Assembly: GCA_964469505.1 (NCBI GenBank)
Contig: CAYXZO010000002.1
Coordinates: forward strand, 15,923 to 79,922
Reading direction: 5' to 3'
Source: an uncultured Lentisphaeria bacterium
GTDB taxonomy: Bacteria > Fidelibacterota > UBA8477 > JABMPR01
DNA length: 64,000 nucleotides
In this document: positions 212 to 30,103 of the stretch, piece by piece
Position numbering within the stretch: position 1 is the first letter of the stretch
Layout: each line of letters starts with the position of its first letter
The notes under the pieces: generated by a model
The model's database searches: none
What the model saw: the letters and a program-made list of their open reading frames with translations, nothing else
What the model was told of the DNA's origin: nothing
Translations under genes and position numbers: made by a program

Positions 212-3200
212 TCAAATCCCTTCCAGTATCTGTTCCACCAGGAGCACCGCGTCCAGAATATCCAGGCGGTCATCTCCATTAAGGTCTGCTACGCTAAATT
301 GTTCCGGTTCAGGCGATTCTTCCAAAAGAATAAACTCTAACAAAAGCGTTACATCCGTAACGTTGATCCGATAGTCGAGGTTTACATCCCCTACCGGATG
401 GACTCCCTCCACTACCTGTAGTTGAATGGTGAAACTGGTATCCGGCACATTAACCGCGTTGGTCAACAATTTCAGGGGCATTGAGTAAGTACCGGTGGCC
501 AAACCGTCGGAATTCAGCGTAAAAGTGAAATAAGCCGTACTATCAGGGGGGATCAAGCCCGTCCATTGTCCCGCCCGGAACCATCGATATGGCCGCTGAA
601 TCCTGACGGCAGTTTGATCGTTGATCATGCTGGCACCGTTGTATACCACTGCAAACCCCCGGTCTCGAGTGGCGTTTTGCATACCTACCGTGGCACTGGT
701 TCGGGGTTCATCCAGGTGCTGATACTGGAACAAGATATTTCCATCGGCGGTCAACAAAACCTGGAAAGTATAGTGCTGAGAGGTTCCCCATTTAGGCATG
801 TTGATGAAAGAAACCACCGCCGAATCTTCCTGGTTGGTCCAGAAATAGATCGAACCCTGTGTGCCACTGTCCAGATTAAGATCATCCCACCAGGGGGCAA
901 TCATGGCAGGGGGCGCCAGAGGGTATGGCAAAGGTTGATTCCGCCAGGGCGCGTCTCTGGTCAAGAATTCTACAAAGCCGTTGCTACAGATATTCAATCG
1001 GCTGAACAAACTATCATAAAAGGGGAACGGGAATCCCAATTCAAAAGGCCCGATAGCAATATCATCGGGATCACCCGGGTAGCTCACGTAGTTGGCAGGC
1101 TCGGCAATGTCTATCCACTGGTAAACCGGTCCGCCCGGCTCCCAGCTTCCCTTCCAGGTATAGCCATAGGTGTCACCCTGTTCCGCGGGACGACGATGCA
1201 CGAATAATATTTCGTCGGGAGCTTCTTTGGTCCGCTGCTCAGGTAGCGGTCCCGGATCTAGCCGGGGAGCGTCCAAATCTGCCCTCTGGATAACGTACAC
1301 CAGGGGAGTCTGGCCTCCGTTGTGCAGCAACAGGGAATCCCGCGTTTCAGACCAGGGGTTAAGCTGATAAGTGAAAGAAGCCCCGGGCCACTCCAATCGA
1401 GGTGGCGCAGCCCGCACCCCTCTGCCAGTGGTGAATTTTATCGCTTTTCCGGCTCTTAGAGGCGACATGGCAGGCGATAGAATATGATTATAACTCAGTT
1501 GCACTCCCCGCCGACGCTGGGGCCCTTGAATTCCAATGGTAGCAAAATTCTGCCAGCTATCCGTGTCGGCGATACGGCGGTACTGAAAAAGAAAAGGAGT
1601 GTCGCCGGTAGGTGTTTCTTCATCCAGCAGAAACACAACCTGGAAGCTTAGAGTGTCCAGGGAAGCGGCGTTGTGAAGGCGTGACCACTCCACCACAAAG
1701 CGACTACTATCGGAACTTAGGTAAGCAAAAACTGCATCACCAGGCGCCCGCAAATCATCCCAAAAAGGAGCAATTAAAGCCGGGGGAGCCAGCAAAGATG
1801 GCAGACGCCGGTTGTGAAAGTCCACCCGCCCACCCTGACTGCCCATAGCCAGCCAGCCGTTGGAACAAATGGTGATTTCATGGTACGTCTGACCATAAAA
1901 CGTGATGGGAATCGGTATGGAATAGGCCGTTGCAGCATCCGCGCCCTCCTGGATATCAACTATGGGTAAAGGCACACCATGGCCCCCCAAGGCCGGATCT
2001 ACTTCCAGCCAGTGATACGCGGGACGTTCCGAATAACCCCAGTCATCATCATCGAAAGCCCGGTAGCCGTACTCATCGGGGGGCAAAGGAGCAAAGGGCA
2101 TCAACTGACCGCCCCGAATCTCCATGGGAAACACAAATTCATTGTTGCCCACAGCTGCAGTCAGAGATAGGGGCTCTTGGGGAAACAAACGGGTGCGGAT
2201 CGCAAAGGAAAGGGACGCCAACTCAATGTTGCTCCCTGGGGGGAGAGCTGGCACGGCCAGCGTTTCAGGCGTGCTCAACAAAGAATCGGTTTGGAAGCTC
2301 AGGAAGGTGGCCGGCAGAGTGTCGCCCCCAGTATTGTAAAGCTCGAATCGCAGCTTTAAAGAATCGCCTGGCTCAAAAGACCATTCCACGATTTGCGGGT
2401 GGGATAGTTCAGCCCGGGGGGCTTGAATCCCCAGGGGCAAATACCAGTTATAATCCAAACTCCCGGCTACGGCTCTCACAGCAATGGCGGTCGTGGTACC
2501 GTGGGGGATATCGGCGGCACAGCTCACCCGGGTAGCTTGTGGTAGTATTAGCAGTTGCCCCGGATTCAAGAAGGGAAAATTCAAAGTCACCGGATCAAAC
2601 TGTAAAAAGGTCGCTGAAGAAGAAAACTCGAGCTGCAAATCGTGCAGTGGAACCGAACCCACCTGGAGTCGCAGGTTGAGAAATTCCGCGTGCCCGGCCC
2701 GTAATGGTCGTGCCAGAAAAATGCTGTCCGCTTGTAACCAGTTGCTGGCATTCAGGACCGGCAAATCGATCTCGTACGGCAATAGGTTGTCACCGGTTAC
2801 AGTGAGGTGGACGCTGGATTCGGAATCTGGCCGGAACGCGACATAAGCCCAGCCGGAAGCATCGGTATAGGCTCCCTGGGCATTAGTGTCATTGTATAGA
2901 AAGACAAATGCCTTGGCCACCGGATTGCCCGTGGTGTCAGTAACCCGGATCGCCAGATTGCGTGTTCCGGGGGGTATGGGAGATTCGACTTCAACCTGCA
3001 GCCGACGGGGAGCCGCGGTCCATAAACTAAGTCCGGGATCCCCCAGAATGTTGTAGATGTGGAAATAAAACTCCGGTGTTTGACCGAAAGGGGCAAAAGC
3101 GTTGTCGTGAAACTCCCGCCAGAGTTCCAATTTCCCGGCCCAGGTGGCCGGTCCCAATACGTGGAGCCCTCCGTCTAGAATACCACCATAAAGCCCCATG

Positions 3201-4687
3201 TCGATAATGTTGTTGAACATGGTATGGGTATAGAGCTCACTGGGACCAAAAAAGGCCACGGCACCACGTGGTACTCCCGAAGTTCCCAGCCGTAACCAGG
3301 CTTCACCGAAACAGGGATCACCGGGAGCGGCATAATTTCCCCCACCGCAGACAATACTGGTAACCACAGGCAAACGCCAGCCGTTGTTCAAGGAGCTATA
3401 CAAATCCTCCGTACCATAATAAGGCCCGGACCAGCCGCCGTAGGAACCAAACCCCCGGTAATTGACGAAATTGACCCCGTTGTTTATGGCGGTATTTATG
3501 AGTGCAGTAGCCTGTTGGTAGGGATAATAGACCGTATCCACCTGGGTGAAGCCGTGCTGCAACAGCTCCTGCCGAACCCAATTTTTAACCTGTTGGATGC
3601 TGGGGGCATAGGAAGCGTTCCCCACCATCAGTGCTCGCCGGTACCAGGTCGAATCACTTACCCAGGGAGTGCTTTCATAATGCACGATTTTGTTGATGAC
3701 CGTGAGCAACTGAGCATAAGAATCCACTGAGAGCCGGCCGACATACATTTCGGGGAACACGTCATCGCCCTCTAACAGGGTATAAGGCAAGTCGGTGACT
3801 TGAGGATCACCCTCGGGGTTGTTGATGTAAAACCCCGGAATACCACGGTCTTCATCACCAATGAGCAATAAATACAACGGGCGCGGTTCGTGGGTAGTCC
3901 AGTAACTCTGAATAAAGTTCTTTATGCTGTTTCTACCGGATCCAGTCTCGGCAGTTGTGACCACGGTTACCTGGTGACCTTTGCGCCGTTTCCAGTCCAC
4001 CAATTCCTGCAAATAGGGTTCAAAACCGGGAGGAGTAATAATCAGATAAGGGGGTAATGTAGTTGAGAGAGAGTCCTCAAGCTCTGGTGTCAAGGTCCAC
4101 TGCGGACTACCTGTCACCAGGTGACTGGGAGTTATGGAAAACCGTAAATGTTTCTTCACGATCACCCGCTGGCGCTGATAATCCACCACCGCTATGGGTA
4201 AATCAATCACCAGGTAATACTTGCCCAACCAGGTGATTACTTGTGTCCGCGGCCGGCTTGAGGCCCGCCCTCTCAACCGCAGCCACTGAAATCGGTTTTC
4301 AGGGCGTTCGGATTGGCCATCAAAGCCAGCGGAGATTCCGGTTCTCAATTGCGGCCGATGCAATACTACCGAATCACCGGATCCCTCTTCCCAAACCACC
4401 TGAGGCGCTCGAGAATTGCGACAGGGGACGAAAAGCGTCAGTTGTGGTAACATAGGTCCGTCGGGTAGCTGCGTAAATGAGAACGGGCCCCCACCAGGAC
4501 CCGGCTCAAGGGAGAGCAGCGCGTGCCACACCAGGGTATCAGTCGTCCGATTAAAAGTAACTTCCACTTTCAGCGTATCATGGCGCGTTTTGAGTGATAG
4601 TGAAGGTTTAGGGATATTTTGTGGTAGGGCGGGAGGGGCCAGCAGTGCCGCCCCGATTAAGATCATTCCCCAGAGCGGGCCCCGCAT
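212..4687 (-). CDS. Secreted multidomain peptidase C25 family protein (gingipain/PorU-like catalytic domain) with a C-terminal dockerin-like repeat pair
   Basis: 1491-aa ORF with an N-terminal signal peptide (MRGPLWGMILIGAALLAPPALP). The central region carries C25 hallmarks: an NYRGFGS His segment and a VTSIVCGGGNYA Cys segment. An internal duplicated domain carries ICSNGW/F...FWDDL motifs. The C-terminus, DVNLDYRINVTDVTLLLEFIL...ADLNGDDRLDILDAVLLVEQIL, matches the dockerin type I consensus (DxNxDGxxNxxD...L). A 7-nt gap to the upstream gene suggests translational coupling. Confidence 0.75.
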   Translation of the reverse strand: MRGPLWGMILIGAALLAPPALPQNIPKPSLSLKTRHDTLKVEVTFNRTTDTLVWHALLSLEPGPGGGPFSFTQLPDGPMLPQLTLFVPCRNSRAPQVVWEEGSGDSVVLHRPQLRTGISAGFDGQSERPENRFQWLRLRGRASSRPRTQVITWLGKYYLVIDLPIAVVDYQRQRVIVKKHLRFSITPSHLVTGSPQWTLTPELEDSLSTTLPPYLIITPPGFEPYLQELVDWKRRKGHQVTVVTTAETGSGRNSIKNFIQSYWTTHEPRPLYLLLIGDEDRGIPGFYINNPEGDPQVTDLPYTLLEGDDVFPEMYVGRLSVDSYAQLLTVINKIVHYESTPWVSDSTWYRRALMVGNASYAPSIQQVKNWVRQELLQHGFTQVDTVYYPYQQATALINTAINNGVNFVNYRGFGSYGGWSGPYYGTEDLYSSLNNGWRLPVVTSIVCGGGNYAAPGDPCFGEAWLRLGTSGVPRGAVAFFGPSELYTHTMFNNIIDMGLYGGILDGGLHVLGPATWAGKLELWREFHDNAFAPFGQTPEFYFHIYNILGDPGLSLWTAAPRRLQVEVESPIPPGTRNLAIRVTDTTGNPVAKAFVFLYNDTNAQGAYTDASGWAYVAFRPDSESSVHLTVTGDNLLPYEIDLPVLNASNWLQADSIFLARPLRAGHAEFLNLRLQVGSVPLHDLQLEFSSSATFLQFDPVTLNFPFLNPGQLLILPQATRVSCAADIPHGTTTAIAVRAVAGSLDYNWYLPLGIQAPRAELSHPQIVEWSFEPGDSLKLRFELYNTGGDTLPATFLSFQTDSLLSTPETLAVPALPPGSNIELASLSFAIRTRLFPQEPLSLTAAVGNNEFVFPMEIRGGQLMPFAPLPPDEYGYRAFDDDDWGYSERPAYHWLEVDPALGGHGVPLPIVDIQEGADAATAYSIPIPITFYGQTYHEITICSNGWLAMGSQGGRVDFHNRRLPSLLAPPALIAPFWDDLRAPGDAVFAYLSSDSSRFVVEWSRLHNAASLDTLSFQVVFLLDEETPTGDTPFLFQYRRIADTDSWQNFATIGIQGPQRRRGVQLSYNHILSPAMSPLRAGKAIKFTTGRGVRAAPPRLEWPGASFTYQLNPWSETRDSLLLHNGGQTPLVYVIQRADLDAPRLDPGPLPEQRTKEAPDEILFVHRRPAEQGDTYGYTWKGSWEPGGPVYQWIDIAEPANYVSYPGDPDDIAIGPFELGFPFPFYDSLFSRLNICSNGFVEFLTRDAPWRNQPLPYPLAPPAMIAPWWDDLNLDSGTQGSIYFWTNQEDSAVVSFINMPKWGTSQHYTFQVLLTADGNILFQYQHLDEPRTSATVGMQNATRDRGFAVVYNGASMINDQTAVRIQRPYRWFRAGQWTGLIPPDSTAYFTFTLNSDGLATGTYSMPLKLLTNAVNVPDTSFTIQLQVVEGVHPVGDVNLDYRINVTDVTLLLEFILLEESPEPEQFSVADLNGDDRLDILDAVLLVEQILEGI

Positions 4688-18348: not shown

Positions 18349-18378
18349 TAAATAAAAAGCCCGGCGGTTGCCGGGCTT
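18349..18378 (-). terminator. Rho-independent terminator of the 18401-19474 gene
   Basis: On the minus strand, GCCCGGCAACCGCCGGGCT is followed by TTTTTATTT. An 8-bp GC stem closes a tetraloop. Confidence 0.75.
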
Positions 18379-18400: not shown

Positions 18401-19474
18401 TTACCTTAAGCTTAAACCAATTCCCGCAGTATAAGCGGTACTGGTGGGCGATTTAGTAACCCCCACGCTGATGTAGGTAAGGGGAACAATGCGAAACCAG
18501 ACCCCGGCCCCCATATCCGTGCCGCTGGGTCCATCAAGGGATAATTTAACGGGCACTTCAACATCGCCCCGTTGATAAGTATAGTCCAGATCGAAGCTGC
18601 TGGTTTCAAAACCGGCGTTGGCATAAACTCCGAAGGCAATTACCAGCAAGTTAATGGACTTACCAACCTGCACACCATAGCTGGTGCTCTTCGCCGTGAG
18701 CACATCTCCAATACCGATTTTTTGGTAATTGCCGTAGAGGTTGATCGTGAAAGGAAACATGGGAATTGGGATGTACTGATCCAGGCTCATCCGGACTCCT
18801 AACCCCAAAAGGTCCACCTTACCCAGTTTATCTCCGATCTTGGGCAGATTCAATTTCGGCAAGAAACGAGCCGTCACTTCCATGCCTCCGGGGAGACCTA
18901 CTGAAACCTGGGGCACTCCAAACGGGACGCTGGCTAACCCCAAGCCCTTCAGCGTGAAATCGGGGATTTCCGCTGCCGCGTTGGCAATGGCGGCCCGAAA
19001 ATTCTCCCCTGGAAGCCCGCGGGCATTGAGACTGTCTACCAGCACGTCGGTGATATGAGAGGGATTGGCAGCCATGGTCCTGCTTTCATCACTGGCAATG
19101 GTGGGCATTTCCGTATTAGATCCATAGTAAATGTCACTGTAGGACAACATGATGGTATCATTGGTGCCCGTGATGGGGTTCAGGGCGAAGGCCATCTGCT
19201 GGTCTCCCAAATTGAAATTGAAAGTTTTAACCGAATCCGGAATCATGACCAGGGATAGCTTTACGCCCACATCAAATCCCAGGAAGTGGTGCAAATTGCC
19301 TCGATGGAACCAGTTGGTATTCAGATTAGTACCTAAAGCGTCGCCAACGGGCTGGACATAACTTGTAGCATTATCCTTCAACAGACGCCTAAGGCTTTCT
19401 TTTAAATCTTGCCCATAGCTCACACTAAGGCCTAATGCTAAGAATACAATTAGACCTTTCCTGATTTTTAACAT
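18401..19474 (-). CDS. Secreted/outer-membrane hypothetical protein
   Basis: Signal peptide MLKIRKGLIVFLALGLSVSYGQ; Gly/β-strand rich. The true ATG is at 19474, preceded by AGGAGG (the ORF track started it at the GTG inside the RBS). A strong terminator lies downstream. Confidence 0.55.
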   Translation of the reverse strand: MLKIRKGLIVFLALGLSVSYGQDLKESLRRLLKDNATSYVQPVGDALGTNLNTNWFHRGNLHHFLGFDVGVKLSLVMIPDSVKTFNFNLGDQQMAFALNPITGTNDTIMLSYSDIYYGSNTEMPTIASDESRTMAANPSHITDVLVDSLNARGLPGENFRAAIANAAAEIPDFTLKGLGLASVPFGVPQVSVGLPGGMEVTARFLPKLNLPKIGDKLGKVDLLGLGVRMSLDQYIPIPMFPFTINLYGNYQKIGIGDVLTAKSTSYGVQVGKSINLLVIAFGVYANAGFETSSFDLDYTYQRGDVEVPVKLSLDGPSGTDMGAGVWFRIVPLTYISVGVTKSPTSTAYTAGIGLSLR

Positions 19475-19698
19475 GCTAATCACCTCCTATTGGATTTACG
19501 CTGTTTGCTCGGCGCATATTAATCTTAGCTTACAATTCGCCATTCCCAATGGCCAGTAAAAAAGGTTAATCCAAGTGAGCAAATGATATATACCACATTT
19601 GGCTTATTTTAGATCGTCTGAAACCTTGAAATGCTCCGGCATTGAAAAACGGTTCAAGAAAAAATCAGCAGAGTCGGATGCTTTGACTTAGTAGGAGG

Positions 19699-20376
19699 TC
19701 AGGAGTCGGAATCGGCTGCCGGCCGTGGTTGATGGCGAATCAGTTCTCCCTCCACCAGAAAAACGATATCCTCGGCAATATTAGTAGCTAGGTCGGCGAT
19801 ACGTTCCAGATAGCGCGAAACCGACAGTAGGTGCAGCCCCCGCTCCATCGTCGCGGGCTCAGCGGCCATTCGGGCTTGGAGGACCTTGAACATCTGTCGA
19901 TTCATATCATCCACTGCATCGTCTCTTTCGAGCACTTCCCGGGCCAGCTGAACATCTTGTTCAATCAGGGCGTTCAAGGCCATCCGGGCCATTTCCCGCA
20001 CGGCATCGGCCATCTCGGTCACATCTACTTCCAGGGTCAAAGGTTCATGGGTGGCCAAGTAAGCGGTGCGCTCGGCGATATTGACCGCCAGATCCCCCAT
20101 GCGTTCCAAATCGTTGTTTACTTTCAACGCGGTAATGATGAACCGCAGATCATTGGCCACGGGTTGATGCAAAGCCAGAATTTTCAGGCATTCCTCTTCC
20201 ACTTCCACTTCCCGCTGATCGATTATTGCGTCCCCTTCCATTACTAACCGGGCCAGCTCCGGCCGCCGTTCCTTTAGGGCGCGCAACGAACGATTTATAG
20301 CTTCTTCCACTAATGCCCCCACCCCCAACAATGCTTGCTTCAATTTGTTCAGATCACGGGTTAAATGAATGGGCAT
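19699..20376 (-). CDS. phoU: Phosphate signalling complex protein PhoU
   Basis: Two PhoU repeats; ERIGDHATNIAE-like motifs (ERIADLATNIAE, ERMGDLAVNIAE). Confidence 0.9.
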   Translation of the reverse strand: MPIHLTRDLNKLKQALLGVGALVEEAINRSLRALKERRPELARLVMEGDAIIDQREVEVEEECLKILALHQPVANDLRFIITALKVNNDLERMGDLAVNIAERTAYLATHEPLTLEVDVTEMADAVREMARMALNALIEQDVQLAREVLERDDAVDDMNRQMFKVLQARMAAEPATMERGLHLLSVSRYLERIADLATNIAEDIVFLVEGELIRHQPRPAADSDS

Positions 20377-20393: not shown

Positions 20394-21173
20394 TTAGCCG
20401 AATCTACCTGTCAGGTAAGCTTCGGTCTGAGGTTCTTTGGGACGGGTAAAAAGCTCTTCAGTGGGACCGAACTCCACTAAGCGCCCCAGATAGAAGAAAG
20501 CAGTGTAATCCGATACCCGGGCGGCTTGTTGCATGTTGTGGGTTACGAAAACCACCGTGTAGTTGGTCTTTAAATTATCCACCAGCTCTTCGATTTTGCC
20601 AGTGGCCACCGGGTCCAGCGCCGAACACGGTTCGTCCATCAACAAAACCTCCGGTTCCACCGCCAGGGCCCGGGCGATGCATAACCGTTGCTGTTGACCG
20701 CCCGAGAGGGCCGTTCCGGGCTTTTTTAATTTATCCTTAACTTCGTCCCATAGAGCAGCGTCTCGCAGCGCCTGTTCCACCCGTCCCTCCAGCTCGCTCC
20801 GATTCAGCTTTTTGTACAGGCGCAACCCATAGGCAATGTTTTCAAAAATGCTCATTGGAAAAGGCGTAGGCTGCTGGAAAATCATACCAATCCGATGGCG
20901 GAGTTCCTGGGCCGAGACTGAAGGGTCCAAGATATTCTGGCCGTCCATGATGATTTCCCCTTCAGCCCGATGCCCTTTGTACAGCTCAAACATCCGATTA
21001 TAGGTTCTGATGTGAGTGGATTTACCACACCCCGAAGGTCCAATGAATGCCGTGACTTTGTTGCGGGCGATGTCCAGAGTATTGTCGAACAACACTTGCT
21101 GCGGACCGTAGAAAAAATTTAGATGCCGGACGGCGATTTTGCGTTCTTCAGGTGGCAAAAGGTATTCGCTCAT
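20394..21173 (-). CDS. pstB: Phosphate ABC transporter ATP-binding protein
   Basis: Walker [13 protein letters not shown] signature LSGGQQQRL, Walker B LLMDEP. It ends in the PstB-typical TGRFG. Confidence 0.95.
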
Positions 21174-22009
21174 ACTTTCCTCCGCTTGACGAAAAAGCGG
21201 GTAAACAAGGTGATCCCCAAAACGCCGGTGGTGATGAGCAAAGCTGCACCCCAGGCCTGGGTGTGCCAGTCATCATAGGGCGACATGGCATAATTGAATA
21301 GAGTAACTGTAAGATTGGCCGTGGGTTCATCCAATCCCCGGGGCCAAAAAGGACTGTTGAGGGCGGTGAACAGCAAGGGAGCCGTTTCACCCGCCACCCG
21401 GGCTATGGCCAACATAATACCAGTCAAAAGACCTCCCGCCGCGGCGGGACGAACCACTTTCCACATTACATGCCAGTAAGGTGCCCCCAGCGCCAGGGCC
21501 GCTTCGCGCAGGGTGGTGGGTACCAACCGGAGCATTTCCTCGGTAGTGCGGGTGACTACCGGCAGCATAATAAGAGCCAGTGACACGCTCCCAGCCCAAC
21601 CGGAAAAATGACCCCGGGGACGCACCAGGATCAGATAAACAAATACTCCAATTACAATTGAAGGCGCTGAAACCAAAAGATCAGAGACGAAACGTACTAC
21701 CGCTGCCGGACGACTTTCCTTACCAAACTCAGCCAGGTATGCCCCGGCCCACAATCCCAGGGGAACGGCCATCACCGTGGCTGCCATGGTCATCAGCAAT
21801 GTCCCCAGGATGGCGTTGGCTAGACCACCACCCGGCATTCCTGGCGGTGCCGGTAGCTGAGTAAAAAAATCTTTGTTCCAGGCCGCCAAACCGCGGGCCG
21901 TAATTTCATAAAGAATCCAGAGCAACATCACCAGGCCCAGCAGAGCGGCAATAGCTGAACAAGCCAATACGATTCTACTTTTCCAACGGCGCATAAGGGT
22001 GCGGGTCAT
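21170..22009 (-). CDS. pstA: Phosphate ABC transporter permease PstA
   Basis: Polytopic permease with the EAA-like loop ([12 protein letters not shown]). Its position overlaps pstB and pstC. Confidence 0.9.
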
Positions 22010-22956
22010 ACCTCACCACTCTTTTCCATACTACGTTTCAGCCACCATTGGGCTAATCCCAGAATAAGCGTCGCCAGCAGGAAAAGCACCAAGCCCAATT
22101 CGATCAACGCCGACAAGTATAAATCGCCATCGGCTTCGGTGAACTCATTGGCCAGCGTGGAGGCGATACTATTCCCGGGAGCAAACAGGGACCAGGAAAG
22201 ATGGTAGGTATTGCCGATGACGAAAGTAACGGCCATGGTCTCACCCAGGGCCCGCCCTAACCCCAACAAAATGGCTCCTACAATACCCTTGCGACCGTAG
22301 GGAATTATGATGGACCTGATGACCTCCCAGGTTGTGCTCCCGAGGCCATAGGCCGCTTCTTTTAATCGTTGAGGTACCAGTAAAAACACATCCCGAATCA
22401 CCGAGGAAATAAATGGCAAAATCATCAATGCCAATACCAATCCCGCCGGCAAGATTCCCACTCCCAGAGGCGGACCGGAGAAAAGAGGTAGCCATCCCAA
22501 GTATTTAGCCAGCGGCGGTTCCAGAATTTCAGCCACTAGGGGAGCAAACACAAATAAGCCCCACATACCGTAAACAATACTGGGGATGGCTGCTAGAAGC
22601 TCTATGGCCGTGCCTAACGGAAAGCGGAGCCAATCGGGAGCTATTTCGGTGAGAAACATGGCAATACCCAGGCTCAAGGGAACTGCCACCAACAGGGCGA
22701 TAATGGTCGTAAGACAAGTTCCCAGCAGTGGGATCAAGGCTCCGAACTTGTCGGTGACCGGATTCCATTCCGCGGAGAGAAAGAACTTTATACCGAATTG
22801 CTTTATAGACGGCCAGGAAGCCACCGTCAGCACTACTAGCAGGGCGGCGAAAAACAAGACCACTAACTGGGCGGAAATTTCCGATACTCCCTGAAAGAGC
22901 CTATCGCCCCAGCTTTGGACGCGGGAATTTGATTTTCTAAACCAACGCAGATTCAT
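22006..22956 (-). CDS. pstC: Phosphate ABC transporter permease PstC
   Basis: Polytopic permease with EAAYGLGSTTWE loop. It lies upstream of pstA. Confidence 0.9.
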   Translation of the reverse strand: MNLRWFRKSNSRVQSWGDRLFQGVSEISAQLVVLFFAALLVVLTVASWPSIKQFGIKFFLSAEWNPVTDKFGALIPLLGTCLTTIIALLVAVPLSLGIAMFLTEIAPDWLRFPLGTAIELLAAIPSIVYGMWGLFVFAPLVAEILEPPLAKYLGWLPLFSGPPLGVGILPAGLVLALMILPFISSVIRDVFLLVPQRLKEAAYGLGSTTWEVIRSIIIPYGRKGIVGAILLGLGRALGETMAVTFVIGNTYHLSWSLFAPGNSIASTLANEFTEADGDLYLSALIELGLVLFLLATLILGLAQWWLKRSMEKSGEV

Positions 22957-23048: not shown

Positions 23049-24086
23049 TTACTTAAAGTCCCACTGAAAGGTCAGGTTACCGATCACGTCATTCCGGCTA
23101 GCATTATTCTGATTATTACCGTTAAGGTAGACATAGACATTCGGCATTACGTGTACCGCAGGAATGGGACGGTAATCCAGGGCTCCAATCACCAGGGAAG
23201 TTTCAGTGTCGCCCGTATCAGTGTCTGGATCATAACGGTCATAACGCAACACCACAGTGGTGGCACTTGTGAGGCCGTACCGTATAAAACCGGAAACGGC
23301 ATTCATATGCGTACCATTGATCCCAACCACGGAGCTTCCTTGGGTGAACGAATAGTAATCCAATCCCATTATCAGACCAGCCAGTTTGTATCCTACGAAG
23401 GTCTTATAAGTAAAATTTTTAGCCCCTGCTCCTTTAGGCTCATAATCCACATAACCTTCTACCAGCAAGCTGCCAAGATCATAAGCCGCTGACAAATACA
23501 CTTTTTTGTATTGGTCATTTTCAGGAGCAGAGTAGTGTGTTCCGTTTGCAATAACTGCCCGATACGACAGTCTTCCATTCAGGAAGACACCTTTGAATCC
23601 AAACCCAACATCAGCGGAACTGGAGCTGTTGGATACTCCGGTTACCCTTTTGAAGTTATCCCAAACAGTTTTCGCCAACCCCCGGTACCCCCACCAATGT
23701 TCAGAAATGCTCCACGTGGGAGTACCAACTATTCCGATGTATGCTGTTGTGTGTGGCCACAAATTTTCCCATCTCAGATATGCCGCCTTAACGAAAGGTC
23801 GCAGTTTGTCATCGGCCTTGCGGTCCACATCGGTGCGGAAGCGGACTGCAAAATCGTCAGTCATTTGTCTGTCTATGGTCATATAGAACCTGGTAAAGGC
23901 GAAGCTGTTGAAATTACCTTCAGTGCGGGGGCCATCGGTGGTGAGGTTGTAGGAATAATTAAAATAGGCTCTACCACTGATCTGGTAATTTGATTGTGGA
24001 TTGGCAGCACTAAAGACTAATTGATATCCAATCAATATTCCCCCCAATACAAATACCAACCAGCGATTCATTCTTATCCCTTTCAT
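23049..24086 (-). CDS. Outer-membrane porin, probably a phosphate-selective OprO/OprP-like porin embedded in the pst operon
   Basis: Signal peptide; β-barrel pattern with a C-terminal ...LTFQWDFK ending in an aromatic residue. It lies between pstS and pstC. Confidence 0.6.
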   Translation of the reverse strand: MKGIRMNRWLVFVLGGILIGYQLVFSAANPQSNYQISGRAYFNYSYNLTTDGPRTEGNFNSFAFTRFYMTIDRQMTDDFAVRFRTDVDRKADDKLRPFVKAAYLRWENLWPHTTAYIGIVGTPTWSISEHWWGYRGLAKTVWDNFKRVTGVSNSSSSADVGFGFKGVFLNGRLSYRAVIANGTHYSAPENDQYKKVYLSAAYDLGSLLVEGYVDYEPKGAGAKNFTYKTFVGYKLAGLIMGLDYYSFTQGSSVVGINGTHMNAVSGFIRYGLTSATTVVLRYDRYDPDTDTGDTETSLVIGALDYRPIPAVHVMPNVYVYLNGNNQNNASRNDVIGNLTFQWDFK

Positions 24087-24238: not shown

Positions 24239-25273
24239 CTATTTCCAAATCGGTTCTCCACTGGTTGAACGCAATGTTTTACGCCAGCTTTGTTCCACCA
24301 GTTGAATCACTTTCCTCGGCAAAGGCACGTAATCCAGCTCTAGAGCCGCTTGGCCCCCATTCATGAAACACCAGTGGAAAAACTCCAGGACCGCCTTAGC
24401 CTTTGCAGGTTTGGCAACCGTCCGCGGCATCAGAATAAAAGTGGCACCGGTGATGGGCCAGGCTTGCTCGCCTGGTTGATTCGTGAGTACCAGATAGAAA
24501 TCCCGGGCTCGGTCCCAGCGAGCGTGGGCAGCCGCAACCTGAAAGGTGGTCGAGGAGGGATTAACAAACTTTCCAGCCAAATTTTTCAGCTGAACATAAC
24601 TCATGTGGCTCTGGACTGCGTAAGCATACTCCACATACCCCAGGGCACCGGGGATTTTTCTGACGAAGGCTGCCACACCCTCGTTACCTTTACCCCCCAA
24701 ACCTGCCGGCCAGGCGACAGCCTTACCGTACCCCACTTTACTTGCCCACTCTGAGCTGACTTGGGCAAGGTAATGGGTAAAAATCCAGGTGGTACCGCTC
24801 CCGTCGGCGCGGTGAATCACCGTTATTTTTTGATCTGGAAGTTCTACCCCAGGGTTGAGCTGCCTTATTATCGGATCATCCCATCGGGTGATCTTGCCCA
24901 GAAAGATATCAGATAATACTTCCGGCGTTAGACGAAGTTTGCCCGGAGCAATTCCTTGAATATTCACAACTGGGACCACTCCCCCCAGAACCATGGGCCA
25001 TTGTGTTAAACCGTACTCCTTCAATTTTTCCGGCTTCAGGGGGGCATCGGAAGCTCCAAAGTCCACCGTGCGTGATTTGATCTGCTTAACTCCTCCACCG
25101 GAGCCGATAGATTGATAGTTGATCCGAATACCTGTCTCCCGATAGTACTGATAAGCCCACCGTGAATATATTGGATATGGGAAAGTGGCTCCGGCACCGG
25201 TCAGGCTGTTCACCTGACCCCAAACTCCGGTCAACATACCGGCCAGCCACAAACTGACGATAACCCTAATCAT
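24239..25273 (-). CDS. pstS: Phosphate-binding periplasmic protein PstS
   Basis: SGAGATFPYPIYSRWA and SGTT motifs of the PstS family; signal peptide. Confidence 0.9.
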   Translation of the reverse strand: MIRVIVSLWLAGMLTGVWGQVNSLTGAGATFPYPIYSRWAYQYYRETGIRINYQSIGSGGGVKQIKSRTVDFGASDAPLKPEKLKEYGLTQWPMVLGGVVPVVNIQGIAPGKLRLTPEVLSDIFLGKITRWDDPIIRQLNPGVELPDQKITVIHRADGSGTTWIFTHYLAQVSSEWASKVGYGKAVAWPAGLGGKGNEGVAAFVRKIPGALGYVEYAYAVQSHMSYVQLKNLAGKFVNPSSTTFQVAAAHARWDRARDFYLVLTNQPGEQAWPITGATFILMPRTVAKPAKAKAVLEFFHWCFMNGGQAALELDYVPLPRKVIQLVEQSWRKTLRSTSGEPIWK

Positions 25274-25363
25274 GATTTCCCCTTATTTGTGGTTATCTGT
25301 AAAGAAATTAACGTGCATGTCAGGCTATAAATGCTTTTCACATCATAAAGTTTAATCCGCAAA

Positions 25364-25402
25364 TGTTAAGACAGTGTTAAAAGGCTGTTAAGTTTCAGTT
25401 AA
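25364..25402 (-). promoter_or_regulatory. Pho box: four direct hexamer repeats (TTAACA on the pstS coding strand) phased every 11 bp
   Basis: On the plus strand, TGTTAA starts at 25364, 25375 and 25386, and AGTTAA at 25397. The spacing is exactly 11 bp, the positions lie 90-130 bp upstream of the pstS start, and the motif matches the PhoP/PhoB-type TT(A/T/C)ACA direct-repeat consensus. Confidence 0.6.
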
Positions 25403-25454
25403 TCTATCAGCTACACTACGAATTCAGTAAGAATGCTTATTGAAATGATCTGAG

Positions 25455-27218
25455 CTAGGAGGCAGAATCCTCATTAATAGCCAGGGGTACCATCACCCGA
25501 AAAGTGCTGCCGTGGCCCGGCGTGCTTTCGACTTCCACTCTACCACCGCTACTTTCCACGATATGTTTCACAATTGCCAGCCCCAATCCGGTACCCCCCA
25601 GTTCCCGAGAGCGAGCCGGATCAACCCGGTAAAAGCGCTCGAAAATGCGTTCCTGATGCCGGGGCTCAATCCCAATGCCGGTGTCCTTCACCTCCAAAAC
25701 GGCTTCTTTTCCTTTCCGGAAAGCGGCAAGGGTGATCCTCCCAGGAGCGGGAGTGTATTTTATAGCATTGTCCACCAGGTTAAATCCAACTTCCTCCAGG
25801 GCATCATCTTCCAACAACACCGGCAAAGGCTTGGAGGGAATTTCCAGGATTATTTCCAACCCACGATCTTCAGCTTGGGGTTTCAACGCTCGGTACACAT
25901 TCTTAAGAATCAGGCCCAAATCACTGGCAACTGTTTGGATATCCGGTCTTGCTTCCCAGCGCGCCAAAGTCAGCAGATCCCGGACCAGGCGTGTCATCCG
26001 CTCAATTTGCTTATGGAGACGGCTTAAGAATTCACGTTGTTGCTCAACCGTTAAATCGGAGGTCTCCAGCAGCGTTTCCACTATGCCCTGCATGGCAGTG
26101 ATGGGGGTTTTCAGCTCGTGGGAAACGTTGGCCACAAAGTCCCGCCGAATGGTCTCCAGCTGGATCTGATGGGTTTTATCATCCAGAACCAGCAATATGC
26201 CCTCCAGCTTTCCGGGAGCTTTTTGGAGCGGGCGGACTAAAACACTAAGAACTTTTTCTCCGGCTTCCGTTTCCAGTCGCAACTCCCGAGCCAGGGTCTG
26301 TTTTTCCTCCAGCCCTTTTCGCACCAATTCCTGGAGCTCAGCAAAGCGCAGTATTTCAAAATACGAGCGGGGAGCAGAGAAAGGCCAATTGCAGTTGAGA
26401 AACTCAGCCGCCGGCTTGTTCATCATGACGACAGATCCATGGGAATCGATCAACAGCACCCCCTCTTGCAGGGCGTCCAACATTGCCGGCAATTTCCGTC
26501 GCTCGGCTGCCAACTGTCGCAGACGTTTTTCATGGCGCCGACGCAATTGGTTGAAGGCTGCCGCTATCCAACCGAATTCATCTTCTCGTAACGTCGCTAA
26601 GGGAGCATCAGGGGCTGGAATCAGTTGCCGCACTTTCTGAGCCAGATTTTGTAAGGGCAGATTAACCAGCCAAGCCAACAGTGCCGCCAACCCAATGCCT
26701 ACCCCCAGACTCAAAGGCCACCCAAACGCCCACAGGCGCCGGCGCAAGCTGCTGAACCCCGGTGGTAATTGGGCCGGAATCTCAAGGAGTATCCAGCCCT
26801 GACCATGATTCAGTTCTTGTCGCAAGCGATAAACCGGCCGTTGCCACCAGGGACTGAATTGGGCTTTACGCGAAGTTATTACGGTGGGAATTCGGGACGG
26901 GGGCTGGTCAGGGGGATTTAGCAAATTCGCTGGGGCTTTCCAGAAAAGAACCTGCCCTACTGAATCGGAAACCACAACCAGCACCCCGTTTTGAGCTGCA
27001 ATTCCGGATATGTGTCGGCGCCAGCTTGCGTCCATACCCGGCACTCCCAATGAATCCAGCTCGTTTATTCGCTGTAAAGTTCGTTTGAGCCGTAGTTGGA
27101 GCTGTTCCCGTCCGGTATGAGCAATCTGTCTGTCCAGCAGCCAGATCAACAGCCCCACGCTGACAATTGTCGGAATCGCCGTAGCCAGCCACAATTTCCA
27201 GAAAAAGTGCCGTTTCAT
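25455..27218 (-). CDS. phoR: Phosphate regulon sensor histidine kinase PhoR
   Basis: Two TM segments, a PAS domain, the HisKA H-box (VSHELKTPITAM) and HATPase G-boxes (GTGLGLAIVK). The gene overlaps phoB. Confidence 0.85.
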   Translation of the reverse strand: MKRHFFWKLWLATAIPTIVSVGLLIWLLDRQIAHTGREQLQLRLKRTLQRINELDSLGVPGMDASWRRHISGIAAQNGVLVVVSDSVGQVLFWKAPANLLNPPDQPPSRIPTVITSRKAQFSPWWQRPVYRLRQELNHGQGWILLEIPAQLPPGFSSLRRRLWAFGWPLSLGVGIGLAALLAWLVNLPLQNLAQKVRQLIPAPDAPLATLREDEFGWIAAAFNQLRRRHEKRLRQLAAERRKLPAMLDALQEGVLLIDSHGSVVMMNKPAAEFLNCNWPFSAPRSYFEILRFAELQELVRKGLEEKQTLARELRLETEAGEKVLSVLVRPLQKAPGKLEGILLVLDDKTHQIQLETIRRDFVANVSHELKTPITAMQGIVETLLETSDLTVEQQREFLSRLHKQIERMTRLVRDLLTLARWEARPDIQTVASDLGLILKNVYRALKPQAEDRGLEIILEIPSKPLPVLLEDDALEEVGFNLVDNAIKYTPAPGRITLAAFRKGKEAVLEVKDTGIGIEPRHQERIFERFYRVDPARSRELGGTGLGLAIVKHIVESSGGRVEVESTPGHGSTFRVMVPLAINEDSAS

Positions 27219-27931
27219 GATTCGCCTTTAAAACGATATCCCACGCCACGGATCGTTTCCAGTAAAACCGCAGCCGGCCCCAGTTTCTTACGCAAAGCTC
27301 TGATGTGGACGTCCACCGTACGGGGAGCCACAATTACCCCCGGTTCCAGTAGGCGCTGCAATAACTGCTTGCGGGTAAACACCCGCCCGGGTGCGGAAGC
27401 TATTACGTACAACAGCCGGAATTGGGTAGCCGTTAAGTCCACTTTCTGGGCCCCTACCAAGACTTCCATACGCAGAGGGTCGATTCGCAGGAATATGGAT
27501 TGTGGTCCGTGAGCAAAAGTGAATTGTAGTGTATTATCAGGGATATTGGTTTGGATTGGCCCTCGGCGCAGAACTGCTCGCACCCGGGCTACCAATTCCT
27601 TGGCACTGAATGGTTTGATGAGATAATCGTCGGCCCCGGCCTCCAGTCCCAGCACCACGTCGTCTTCCTCACCTTTGGCAGTTACCATGATTATTCTGAT
27701 ATCCCGTGTGCGCGGGTCTTGACGCAAGCGGCGACAAATCTCCAGGCCATCCAGCCCGGGGAGCATGATATCCAACAACACCAGCTCTGGGAGTAGGGTT
27801 TGAATACCCTTTAACCCCACTTCCCCATCACCGGCCGATTGCACTTTGAACCCTTCCCTGCTAAGACGGAACGTCATTACCTCCCGGATATCCGGTTCAT
27901 CTTCCAGGATAAAAATCCGGGGAGTATCCAT
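27215..27931 (-). CDS. phoB: Phosphate regulon response regulator PhoB (OmpR family)
   Basis: Receiver domain (DEPDIRE...LLDIMLPGLDG) and an OmpR-type winged helix (VDVHIRALRKKL). Confidence 0.85.
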   Translation of the reverse strand: MDTPRIFILEDEPDIREVMTFRLSREGFKVQSAGDGEVGLKGIQTLLPELVLLDIMLPGLDGLEICRRLRQDPRTRDIRIIMVTAKGEEDDVVLGLEAGADDYLIKPFSAKELVARVRAVLRRGPIQTNIPDNTLQFTFAHGPQSIFLRIDPLRMEVLVGAQKVDLTATQFRLLYVIASAPGRVFTRKQLLQRLLEPGVIVAPRTVDVHIRALRKKLGPAAVLLETIRGVGYRFKGES

Positions 27932-28014
27932 CTTTTACTCGGTTCTTACAATTTTGAAAAAGTTCGCTGAGGAGGTGAATGGGGAAAATAATTAGAGATG
28001 GTCACCAGCATTGG

Positions 28015-28296
28015 TCAGTCCGACAAGGTCGGCGGTCGTTTCCAGGGAAATTCATATTCCAGAATATCGGCACAGCGGATAAAGTCATTGGCATCCATGG
28101 CAGCCAAGAGCCGCTCCAATAAGGTCTGAATCTCCTGCAGAGATTGTAATTGCAGCACCTCTTCCAACTGCCCGGCTCTGATGGTCTCTTGCAGCGCCTC
28201 GGCAAATAGCCGCACTTTATCAAAACCTTCCTCGAAACGACCGGTGCGATATGCTACGGCTATTTCGCGGGCCAAGTCGCGTACGTCCTCACTCAT
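28015..28296 (-). CDS. Small α-helical hypothetical protein
   Basis: 93-aa ORF 4 nt downstream of the DUF115 gene. No recognisable motif. Confidence 0.4.
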   Translation of the reverse strand: MSEDVRDLAREIAVAYRTGRFEEGFDKVRLFAEALQETIRAGQLEEVLQLQSLQEIQTLLERLLAAMDANDFIRCADILEYEFPWKRPPTLSD

Positions 28297-28299
28297 GGG

Positions 28300-29643
28300 T
28301 TATTCCTTCGATATGATTGCATTGATATACTCTTCGACCCCCATCACTTGGCACCCTTTGATCAAGGCCCCATTGGGAGAAAGATTTACGGCTTTTAACT
28401 CCGGATGGGCAGCTAAAAAAGCTTCAGTAGCTCGCAAATGCTCCACGAAATCAGGACGGGTAGTAAGTCGGCGGCCATCATTGGCTTCAACCTCCAACAG
28501 GTTCAGTTTTCCCGAACCGAGGAGATTGCCCGCTGCCGATTGGGACGCGTGGGTTCGGTCGCCCGGGAAACCTAGATCGACTCCCACCAGTGCCAGATTT
28601 GGAACCTCCAGTCGTATCGCCAATTCCAGGGCAGGATGAAGCACAGAACTCTCCGTAGGCAGGACCGCCTCAGCTTTAAATTCAGGCACTCGCATTTCAT
28701 CCCCAGGCTGATACGCCAGGTAGAGTCTTCTCGGCCAACGGCGTAACAGATCCGGGTGCACCGCCGGATAAGCAACTAGAGCTGTTGCGGGAGGTAACTG
28801 GGCTAAATACTCCGAGGGGAAGTAAGACAAAACCTTCTCAGCAGGGTCCAAACTCAACACTACGTCAGGCTTTAACCCCTGCTGTAAGACGGGTACGAGA
28901 GCAGCGTCCAGTACAATGGAGAAGTAGTGCTCCTGCCAGCCGGTCAAGAGCGGTAAAACAAGGTCTAAGGAGGGGCCGGCACCGAAAATAACTGCGGGGC
29001 GACGAAGGGGCTTAAGGTCGCGGATAAAATCAGCCACTGTGGCGCGGTCCCGATAAAGCTCAGAATGGGCCTGAATCCGGTGGGTTATTTGTTGCTGCAT
29101 CTCAGCCCAGCGGCTATTGAGCCATGCCTGGCGTAGTTGCAGGAAGATCCGGTCCCGCAAAGGGAAATACTCGGCTTCGGCCAATAATACCTCGGCCGGA
29201 ACAATTGTGAACGGCGGCCGGGGTTTCTCATGCTCTGGAACCGCTAGCTCAAGTCGCTCATCACCAAGAATCTCCAGGGGTAATTGTTCCAGGATCGCCC
29301 GCAATAGGGGCAAGTTCAATAAATAGACTTTGATCTTCCGTATGCCGGGACGTTGCAATAAAACGCGGGGCAAGTGCCCACATCCCAAGCCATAAACCAC
29401 CGCTTCGGGGGCCGAATCGGGAATCAACTTGGCCTGGAGCCAAGCTTCTCGAGAAGGATCAAAGCGGCTATGAATCAAAATTTTAGAAGTTTCGGCATAA
29501 GCTTCACCATTGGATGCAGCCCGAACGAACACCTGAGCCGGCTCCGTTTCCTGTATTTGCTCTCCCAACGAGGGGAAACGTTTATTTAATATTTCCAGAT
29601 TGAAATTCCAGGGGCTACCCCATTCACTGGAAATATAAGGCAT
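28300..29643 (-). CDS. Motility-accessory-factor (Maf)/DUF115 (MptE-like) family protein, a putative nonulosonic-acid glycosyltransferase-like enzyme
   Basis: An N-terminal Rossmann-like VVYGLGCGHL segment is followed by the central GxGPSL motif (VIFGAGPSLD) typical of DUF115/Maf proteins. Size is 447 aa. Confidence 0.5.
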   Translation of the reverse strand: MPYISSEWGSPWNFNLEILNKRFPSLGEQIQETEPAQVFVRAASNGEAYAETSKILIHSRFDPSREAWLQAKLIPDSAPEAVVYGLGCGHLPRVLLQRPGIRKIKVYLLNLPLLRAILEQLPLEILGDERLELAVPEHEKPRPPFTIVPAEVLLAEAEYFPLRDRIFLQLRQAWLNSRWAEMQQQITHRIQAHSELYRDRATVADFIRDLKPLRRPAVIFGAGPSLDLVLPLLTGWQEHYFSIVLDAALVPVLQQGLKPDVVLSLDPAEKVLSYFPSEYLAQLPPATALVAYPAVHPDLLRRWPRRLYLAYQPGDEMRVPEFKAEAVLPTESSVLHPALELAIRLEVPNLALVGVDLGFPGDRTHASQSAAGNLLGSGKLNLLEVEANDGRRLTTRPDFVEHLRATEAFLAAHPELKAVNLSPNGALIKGCQVMGVEEYINAIISKE

Positions 29644-30103
29644 AAACTAATGTCTCAATTTCACCTGTATTTGCAAGGTCTCTCAGTCACTTTCTCAAGG
29701 CAGGAGCTCGATTCTCCATAGAAAATATTTTTTGAGCCTTTTCCATTATCTCCTTGCAAATCCCCCCGGGCCCGGTCACATTAGGCCCGCATGCTAAGCT
29801 CCGGACCTACCATTTTATGACTGCCTAATTTTTTACCCATCATTCCATACTGAAGCCCATCAATGCTTAATTCTTCTCCACTCCGTTTTTCTCCCTCAGC
29901 AGATATTAATAACATCAATTTTGAGGGGCCGAATAATGGCTTTAGTCAGCATAGAACCAAGGACGTTGTCAGAGGGTTTTATCCCTTGATAGTCTTAGCT
30001 AGCAATTTTCAATGCCCTTATAGGGTCTCTCGTGCAACGACAGGTGTGCTAGTCGCGCGTGGGAGTTGGTACTAAAATAGCACACGCAGCAAGGAGTTCT
30101 TAA

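Follow-up and report, generated by a model that had tools for sequence, protein, structure and literature searches.

The Pho boxes of the cyanobacterial regulator SphR are PyTTAAPyPy(T/A) repeats at 11-bp intervals that are located upstream of pst/sphX-type genes. More generally, a PHO box is defined by 11-nt units in direct repeat, and the promoter of the Escherichia coli pstS gene carries two of these boxes, with four such units in all and CTGTCAT as the conserved core (PMC4415409). The Bacillus-type PHO box, in the form in which Eder et al. (1999) are quoted in PMC11870197, comprises four TT(A/T/C)ACA-like units with an 11-bp periodicity. In the crystallographically determined complex between PhoB and DNA, Arg201 forms a hydrogen bond with a guanine, Thr194 and Val197 are in contact with thymines, and Arg219 reads the bases between the half-sites (PMC3973317).

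An array of the same general kind is present in the window, that is, the whole 64-kb stretch of DNA analyzed here, which belongs to a lineage without a close cultured relative. It occupies positions 25364..25402 of the minus strand, within the 181-bp gap (25274-25454) between a phoR-like gene and pstS, beginning 52 bp past the phoR stop codon and lying 91-129 nt upstream of the pstS ATG. On the plus strand, TGTTAA starts at 25364, 25375 and 25386 (25364-25369, 25375-25380 and 25386-25391) and AGTTAA at 25397 (25397-25402), with a period of exactly 11 bp; read on the strand that encodes pstS, the units are TTAACT (25402..25397) followed by three copies of TTAACA (25391..25386, 25380..25375 and 25369..25364), and 23 of the 24 core positions are identical across the four units. 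The initial annotation had described four hexamers 11 bp apart within 25355-25405, about 90-130 bp ahead of the pstS start codon; the starts proved exact, the interval encloses the array, and the measured distance agrees.

Could such an array arise by chance? The three-unit pattern TGTTAA-N5-TGTTAA-N5-TGTTAA, with up to two mismatches allowed, is expected 0.02 times per window and was found twice, in overlapping matches that both fall on the array. In a motif-blind search that accepted any hexamer present in four units at periods of 10-12 with a total of at most one mismatch, the array was the sole match in the 64 kb, and 20 Markov-1 simulations yielded none. No further TTAACA-N5-TTAACA pairs with at most one mismatch exist elsewhere in the 64-kb window; pairs with exactly two mismatches number six, one of them inside the array on the opposite strand, and are at the chance level, given that 4.3 pairs with up to two mismatches are expected. 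None of these two-mismatch pairs in the window lies upstream of phoB, of the porin gene or of the gene at 18401-19483, and the scan of the 64 kb upholds the earlier statement that nothing similar to the array precedes any of the three. Because TAA is present in every unit and 11 is not a multiple of 3, stop codons occur in all three frames of both strands, so that the array can only be non-coding; by the same token, the extragenic location of such arrays is in itself uninformative.

How does the array compare with the described types of PHO box? It consists of at least two direct repeats of 11 nt, each combining a conserved core with about four variable bases, as PHO-box units are described in PMC4415409, and these repeats are on the coding strand, occupy the presumed -35 region, keep a set spacing to the putative -10 hexamer and precede a Pho-regulon gene, pstS. 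The succession of TTAACT and three TTAACA units at 11 bp fits the Bacillus-type PhoP box to the extent that its consensus is quoted in PMC11870197, in line with the earlier reading of TTAACA as a PhoP-type half-site. By that quoted consensus, the boxes of Bacillus subtilis PhoP share with the array the TTAACA half-site, the number of four units, the 11-bp phasing and the coding-strand orientation, and the position just upstream of the -10 hexamer of a pst promoter is also the same. The differences from B. subtilis lie in the host, which here is not a Firmicute but an uncultured bacterium of Gram-negative type with an outer-membrane porin encoded in the operon, and in the regulator, whose nearest sequence match among solved structures is E. 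coli PhoB. Like the array, the E. coli pstS promoter shows four 11-bp direct repeats before pstS and a fixed distance of the proximal unit from the -10 hexamer, but the core in the window is TTAACA rather than TGTCA and contains no guanine, and residue 201 of the regulator is Ala instead of Arg, so that this is not a PHO box of the E. coli type. The SphR boxes resemble the array in the TTAA core, the 11-bp phasing, the presence of at least three units and the location upstream of pst/sphX-type genes, but differ from it at position 7, which is A or T in the window and a pyrimidine in the SphR boxes.

The array sits between phoR and pstS, one promoter-spacing before a -10-like hexamer, as would befit the promoter region of the pst operon that it had originally been proposed to mark. 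Judging from these sequence features, it is very probably the Pho box of the pst operon promoter and a candidate PhoB-binding site. The element itself, a Bacillus-type PHO box in an uncultured lineage of Gram-negative type, is textbook biology; what is added here is a corrected assignment of the -10 hexamer, a 9-nt geometry that extends across phyla, and a match between residue 201 of the regulator and the first base of the half-site. For the organism in question, the array marks the putative promoter through which phosphate starvation would act on the main operon for high-affinity phosphate uptake and yields a candidate Pho-regulon motif, namely NTTAACA repeated at 11 bp, followed after 9 nt by TAnnnT.

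The genes around the array are all on the minus strand. The presumed array-binding protein, a phoB-like response regulator of the OmpR family with the Pfam domains Response_reg and Trans_reg_C, is encoded at 27215..27931 and is followed by the phoR-like gene (25455..27218), whose product is a sensor kinase with PAS, HisKA and HATPase domains by Pfam. The first gene downstream of the array is pstS (24239..25273), encoding the phosphate-binding protein, which scores above the cut-off of the NCBIfam PstS equivalogs (425 and 392 bits); a Shine-Dalgarno-like AAGGGG (25279..25284) can be read 5 nt before its ATG (25273). Next come a porin gene of 345 codons (23049..24086) lodged between pstS and pstC, then pstC (22006-22956), pstA (21170-22009) and pstB (20394-21173), all three assigned by Pfam, and phoU (19699-20376), the product of which is above the respective NCBIfam equivalog cut-off; the four genes from pstC to phoU overlap or are closely spaced, and the names originally given to pstS, pstCAB and phoU can all be retained. 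The gene at 18401..19483, which starts 215 bp after phoU and matches Pfam DUF6588, is possibly the last of the transcription unit and may encode a Pho-controlled protein; it has no match in NCBIfam and no homologue in 80 listed pstS loci. A terminator scan detected no terminator-like hairpins in the intervals that separate pstS from phoR and from the porin gene, and the first strong terminator after the array, at 18378..18357 on the minus strand, past the DUF6588 gene, is an intrinsic-terminator-like hairpin (AAGCCCGGCAACCGCCGGGCTT; nine pairs, seven of them G-C) with a T-run. The transcription unit probably extends from about 25342 to about 18357 and includes the genes from pstS through the DUF6588 gene.

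The absence of an array upstream of phoB in the scan of the 64 kb implies that autoregulation of phoB in the manner of E. coli is not evident, and the lack of a PHO box at that position in the window is another difference from the E. coli system. The phoB gene is preceded by an MptE-like gene (28300-29643) and a DUF8042 gene (28015-28296), again on the minus strand, and the regions upstream of these genes and of phoB (27932-28014 and 29644-30000) contain no Pho-box-like repeats; the MptE-like and DUF8042 genes may share a transcript with phoBR. The order MptE-like gene, DUF8042 gene, phoB is common to all same-species contigs that extend that far upstream.

The position of the -10 hexamer can be approached by comparing 14 promoters of the TAACA type. 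In nine of these, TAnnnT is found exactly 9 nt past the proximal hexamer, compared to three at most for any other spacer, and TATAAT is matched at 4.0 positions on average with a spacer of 9 nt and at no more than 3.0 with any other spacer. In the window, this spacing gives TTAACA-TTTGCGGAT-TAAACT, with the -10 hexamer at 25354..25349. TAAACT matches the consensus at four of six positions, and a better match, TATGAT (25342..25347, minus strand), which came out of a scan with the sigma-70 consensus, is present 7 bp downstream, 16 nt from the proximal TTAACA; even so, the comparison across promoters makes TAAACT, with its 9-nt spacer, more likely to be the -10 hexamer than TATGAT. Among promoters of the proteobacterial type, 17 of 25 have TAnnnT 11 nt past TGTCA, the same spacing as in the E. 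coli pstS promoter. Taken together, the 9-nt and 11-nt spacings put both types of box in one register, with GTCATA equivalent to NTAACA, such that the hexamer has its first base where TGTCA has its guanine. With TAAACT as the -10 hexamer, transcription would start near 25342 and the array would span about -60 to -22, compared with about -60 to -20 for the core region of the PhoP box in B. subtilis.

The organism is without close relatives in the databases, where PstS and PhoB find their next matches at 66% and 71% identity, respectively, the latter on a 1.8-kb contig, whereas in the five metagenome contigs of the same species (L001-L005) the gap between phoR and pstS is 100% identical and hence uninformative on constraint. 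The nearest homologues are scattered, those of the porin coming from Calditrichaeota and Gemmatimonadetes MAGs, those of PhoB from Acidobacteria, Krumholzibacteria and Planctomycetes, and those of PstS from Desulfobacterota. We therefore examined whether the type of element, rather than the aligned sequence, recurs upstream of pstS elsewhere, and compared the 80 listed pstS loci, which come from many phyla, for phased repeats. A strict search for three phased hexamers with at most one mismatch found few arrays among these loci, and a spacing histogram and a degenerate pattern were accordingly needed. On the coding strand, 14 of 17 TAACA pairs in the 80 loci are spaced at 11, 22 or 33 bp, with one pair found on the opposite strand, and pairs of TGTCA, the classical proteobacterial core, show the same spacing behavior. 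Under a strict 11-bp criterion, [TCG]TAAC[AG] units precede pstS in 12 of the 80 listed loci, which belong to Desulfobacterota, Caldisericaceae, Melioribacter, Oligoflexia, Aquifex and unclassified MAGs; four looser cases are added by L038 (Latescibacterota) and L043 (Armatimonadota), where the units are 22 bp apart, and by L021 and L071, where pairs of units were read by eye.

Phased NTAACA repeats of this kind are found in coding-strand orientation ahead of pstS, or ahead of a porin gene paired with pstS, in 16 further lineages, including two Calditrichaeota that were reached through homologues of the 345-aa porin and are closer to the window in operon structure. One of these (L207, a MAG, GCA_008501795.1) has the order phoB-phoR-[186 bp]-porin-pstS-pstCAB-phoU, and in the other (L211, GCA_024277115.1) phoB-phoR is followed by two unknown genes, a 343-bp gap and a porin gene at the contig end; both gaps contain GTAACA-N5-GTAACA followed, after 9 nt, by TATAAT or TATTAT. 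The arrays in other lineages are analogous to the one in the window and not alignable with it. The initial annotation had named non-conservation upstream of pstS in relatives as an observation that would count against its reading; in the form of equivalent arrays at the strict, looser and Calditrichaeota loci, the opposite was seen.

When the motif itself was taken as the point of departure, with three exact TTAACA units at 11 bp sought in public metagenomes, the matches came mostly from unrelated AT-rich contigs, and most were not beside phosphate genes. Nevertheless, such arrays were found directly upstream of genes for a fusion of a Na/Pi cotransporter with PhoU (L113) and a Porin_O_P protein (L115), and upstream of pstS, pstC and pstB, each with an array of its own (L146, L158). 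The TTAACA motif alone is unspecific, but it accompanies phosphate genes at a rate well beyond that for random genes.

The regulator encoded next to the array has PhoB as its best NCBIfam family, at 230 bits against a cut-off of 296, and the kinase has PnpS and PhoR (351 against 400 and 297 against 334 bits, respectively, again below the cut-offs), so that the identity of both rests on the best hit together with synteny. Among solved structures, the DNA-binding domain of the regulator is closest to that of E. coli PhoB, with an E-value of 1e-17 as against 5e-14 for the runner-up, and the recognition helices, RTVDVHIRALRKKL in the window regulator and RTVDVHIRRLRKAL in E. coli PhoB, are nearly identical, with RTVDVHIR-LRK in both. 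Thr194, Val197 and Arg219 are kept, Arg201 is replaced by Ala, and the half-site lacks a G. In B. subtilis PhoP, the position of Arg201 is occupied by His. The PhoB search listed 120 proteins, counting the one from the window, and in all 118 whose helix could be parsed, position 201 is Ala, Ser or Gly.

At the loci that have a regulator near the array, the amino acid at position 201 can be compared directly with the base that opens the half-site. Arg201 goes with half-sites that begin with G in all six cases (GTAACA in L207, L211 and L017; TGTCA in L023, L051 and L058, with the guanine taken in the common register), and Ala, Gly, Ser, Asn or His at this position goes with T or C as the first base in all eight (the window, L007, L033, L040, L044, L071, L021 and L158), a correlation that was noticed post hoc among 14 loci that are not phylogenetically independent. 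This pattern in the sequences supports, short of proving, the notion that the opening base of the half-site goes with the identity of residue 201. Unlike the recognition helix, the loop with which E. coli PhoB contacts region 4 of sigma-70 (regulator residues about 177-192) is not conserved: the PhoB contact residues Glu177, Trp184, Gly185, Glu191 and Asp192 (PMC3973317) correspond to Lys, Leu, Glu, Ala and Pro here. This divergence from E. coli PhoB implies that the activation contact, and with it the recruitment of the polymerase, may differ.

Several other explanations of the array have to be considered. The proximal TTAACA, which is one mismatch away from TTGACA, could be the -35-like element of an ordinary, largely constitutive sigma-70 promoter with TATGAT, 16 nt further on, as its -10 hexamer, in which case the upstream repeats would only modulate transcription, for instance by acting like an UP element, by bending the DNA or by providing sites for repression or fine-tuning by PhoB. 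The combination TTAACA-16-TATGAT does match the sigma-70 consensus at 10 of 12 positions, but promoter-like matches in the gap region are no more common than in shuffled sequences, and across the 14 comparable promoters a -10-like hexamer recurs at a spacer of 9 nt and is found at 16 nt once, in the window itself. A plain promoter, moreover, leaves unexplained both the four exactly phased copies and their recurrence upstream of pstS, and we consider this explanation unlikely. A related doubt concerns the protein involved, as the usual targets of OmpR-family proteins are direct repeats with a spacing of 10-11 bp and the adjacent regulator falls below the PhoB equivalog cut-off, so that the array might be the operator of another factor, for example, an OmpR-family regulator encoded elsewhere. 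That it sits between phoR and pstS, that the pairing of an array with adjacent phoBR is seen also in L207, L211, L007, L033, L040 and L044, and that residue 201 of the regulator tracks the first base of the adjacent half-sites all speak for the PhoB-like protein and render the involvement of a different regulator very improbable.

Finally, the units are AT-rich, and three exact copies of TTAACA occur in many unrelated metagenome contigs, which might suggest that the array arose by chance in AT-rich intergenic DNA or belongs to a structured RNA or leader, with no role in protein binding. Chance, however, is at odds with the expectation of 0.02 per window and with the failure of all 20 simulations to produce a comparable array of any hexamer, and, with the transcription start where it is placed here, the array would not be transcribed from its own promoter. 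Given that the gap between phoR and pstS has no match in Rfam and that its transcript folds no better than shuffled sequences (z = +1.2), the reading as an RNA element was rejected, and the probability that we would grant to chance and RNA together is minimal.

The reading of the array as the Pho box of the pst operon translates into the following scheme, in which the binding of PhoB, activation as opposed to repression, the start of transcription and the extent of the operon are all inferred. When phosphate is limiting, the PhoB-like regulator, whose gene lies just upstream, would be phosphorylated by PhoR, and two dimers of this regulator would bind head-to-tail, with one monomer per 11-bp unit and the recognition helix entering the major groove at NTAACA. 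The array would thus comprise two head-to-tail sites for PhoB dimers, in likeness to the tandem head-to-tail dimers of E. coli PhoB. Because the proximal unit, in the -35 region, would end 9 nt before the -10 hexamer TAAACT, bound PhoB would be placed to recruit an RNA polymerase of the sigma-70 type. Transcription would then start near 25342, proceed through pstS, the porin gene, pstCAB, phoU and probably the DUF6588 gene, and end at the terminator at 18378..18357.

The porin in this operon deserves separate discussion. The 345-aa protein itself has no match in Pfam, but 13 of the 26 aligned members of its family match Porin_O_P weakly (best E = 5.8e-6) and 4 of the 26 match Porin_4. The AlphaFold model is a barrel of 16 strands (pLDDT 85.8, pTM 0.80) that Foldseek aligns with trimeric porins at a TM score of about 0.7; a profile search of the porin family against the PDB found nothing, and it was the fold search alone that found porins. 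In terms of the predicted structure, the protein is a 16-strand beta-barrel porin and probably a divergent relative of the phosphate-selective porins O/P, so that its designation as a porin in the initial annotation is borne out by the model and by the matches of its relatives. With 27 homologues, it represents a small, undescribed family of porins that is probably a distant relation of Porin_O_P. Three homologues (L209, L210 and L212) are outside pst operons and for this reason cannot be used as promoter relatives. Two of these genes (L209 3031-4035 and L210 5001-6023) are located between tatA and a molybdopterin oxidoreductase gene, in clusters whose upstream part encodes a phosphonate-binding-like protein, a kinase and a sigma-54 regulator. 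This layout resembles, by analogy, that of arsenate-reductase/arsenite-oxidase (Arr/Arx) clusters and suggests a porin with a predicted selectivity for oxyanions.

Contigs of the same species carry two variants of the porin, of 345 and 340 aa (L001 9792-10829 versus L002-L005), whereas PstS, PhoB and PhoR, where complete, and the gap between phoR and pstS are identical in all of them, which would make the porin a strain-variable surface protein. A Zetaproteobacteria MAG (L016) encodes a weak porin homologue, with 30% identity over 136 aa, at 2918-3301, immediately upstream of pstS and on the same strand.

A more general hypothesis would bring these observations together, although we offer it tentatively and would judge it slightly more apt to fail than to hold. 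Under this hypothesis, the Pho boxes of different phyla share a single register and geometry, with a half-site N-T-(A/C)-A-(C/T)-A that ends 9 nt before the -10 hexamer; residue 201 of the regulator sets the first base, with Arg specifying G (TGTCA, GTAACA) and Ala, Gly, Ser, Asn or His specifying T or C (TTAACA, CTAACA); and the Pho-controlled porin belongs to an undescribed family of oxyanion porins that is also represented in Arr/Arx-like clusters for arsenic respiration. The fixed spacing between box and -10 hexamer, together with the residue 201 rule, could improve the prediction of regulons in metagenome-assembled genomes. Should the shared register and the residue 201 rule turn out to be true, Pho regulons would become predictable from the sequence of the regulator alone, uncultured lineages included.

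Two minor features of the compared loci may be added. Upstream of the MptE-like gene, in the window as well as in the same-species contig L001 (2415-3244), two adjacent short ORFs of 141 and 135 aa match the cytochrome oxidase subunit I family and may be a split or degenerate gene; a gene for an RNA-binding protein with an RRM domain adjoins them. In loci of the Calditrichaeota type (L206/L207 8184-10397; L208 7458-9716), the products of pstC and pstA are about 740 and 540 aa long, respectively, and that of pstC has, besides its permease domain, weak Pfam matches to beta-propellers, which is an unusual fusion for an ABC permease for phosphate.
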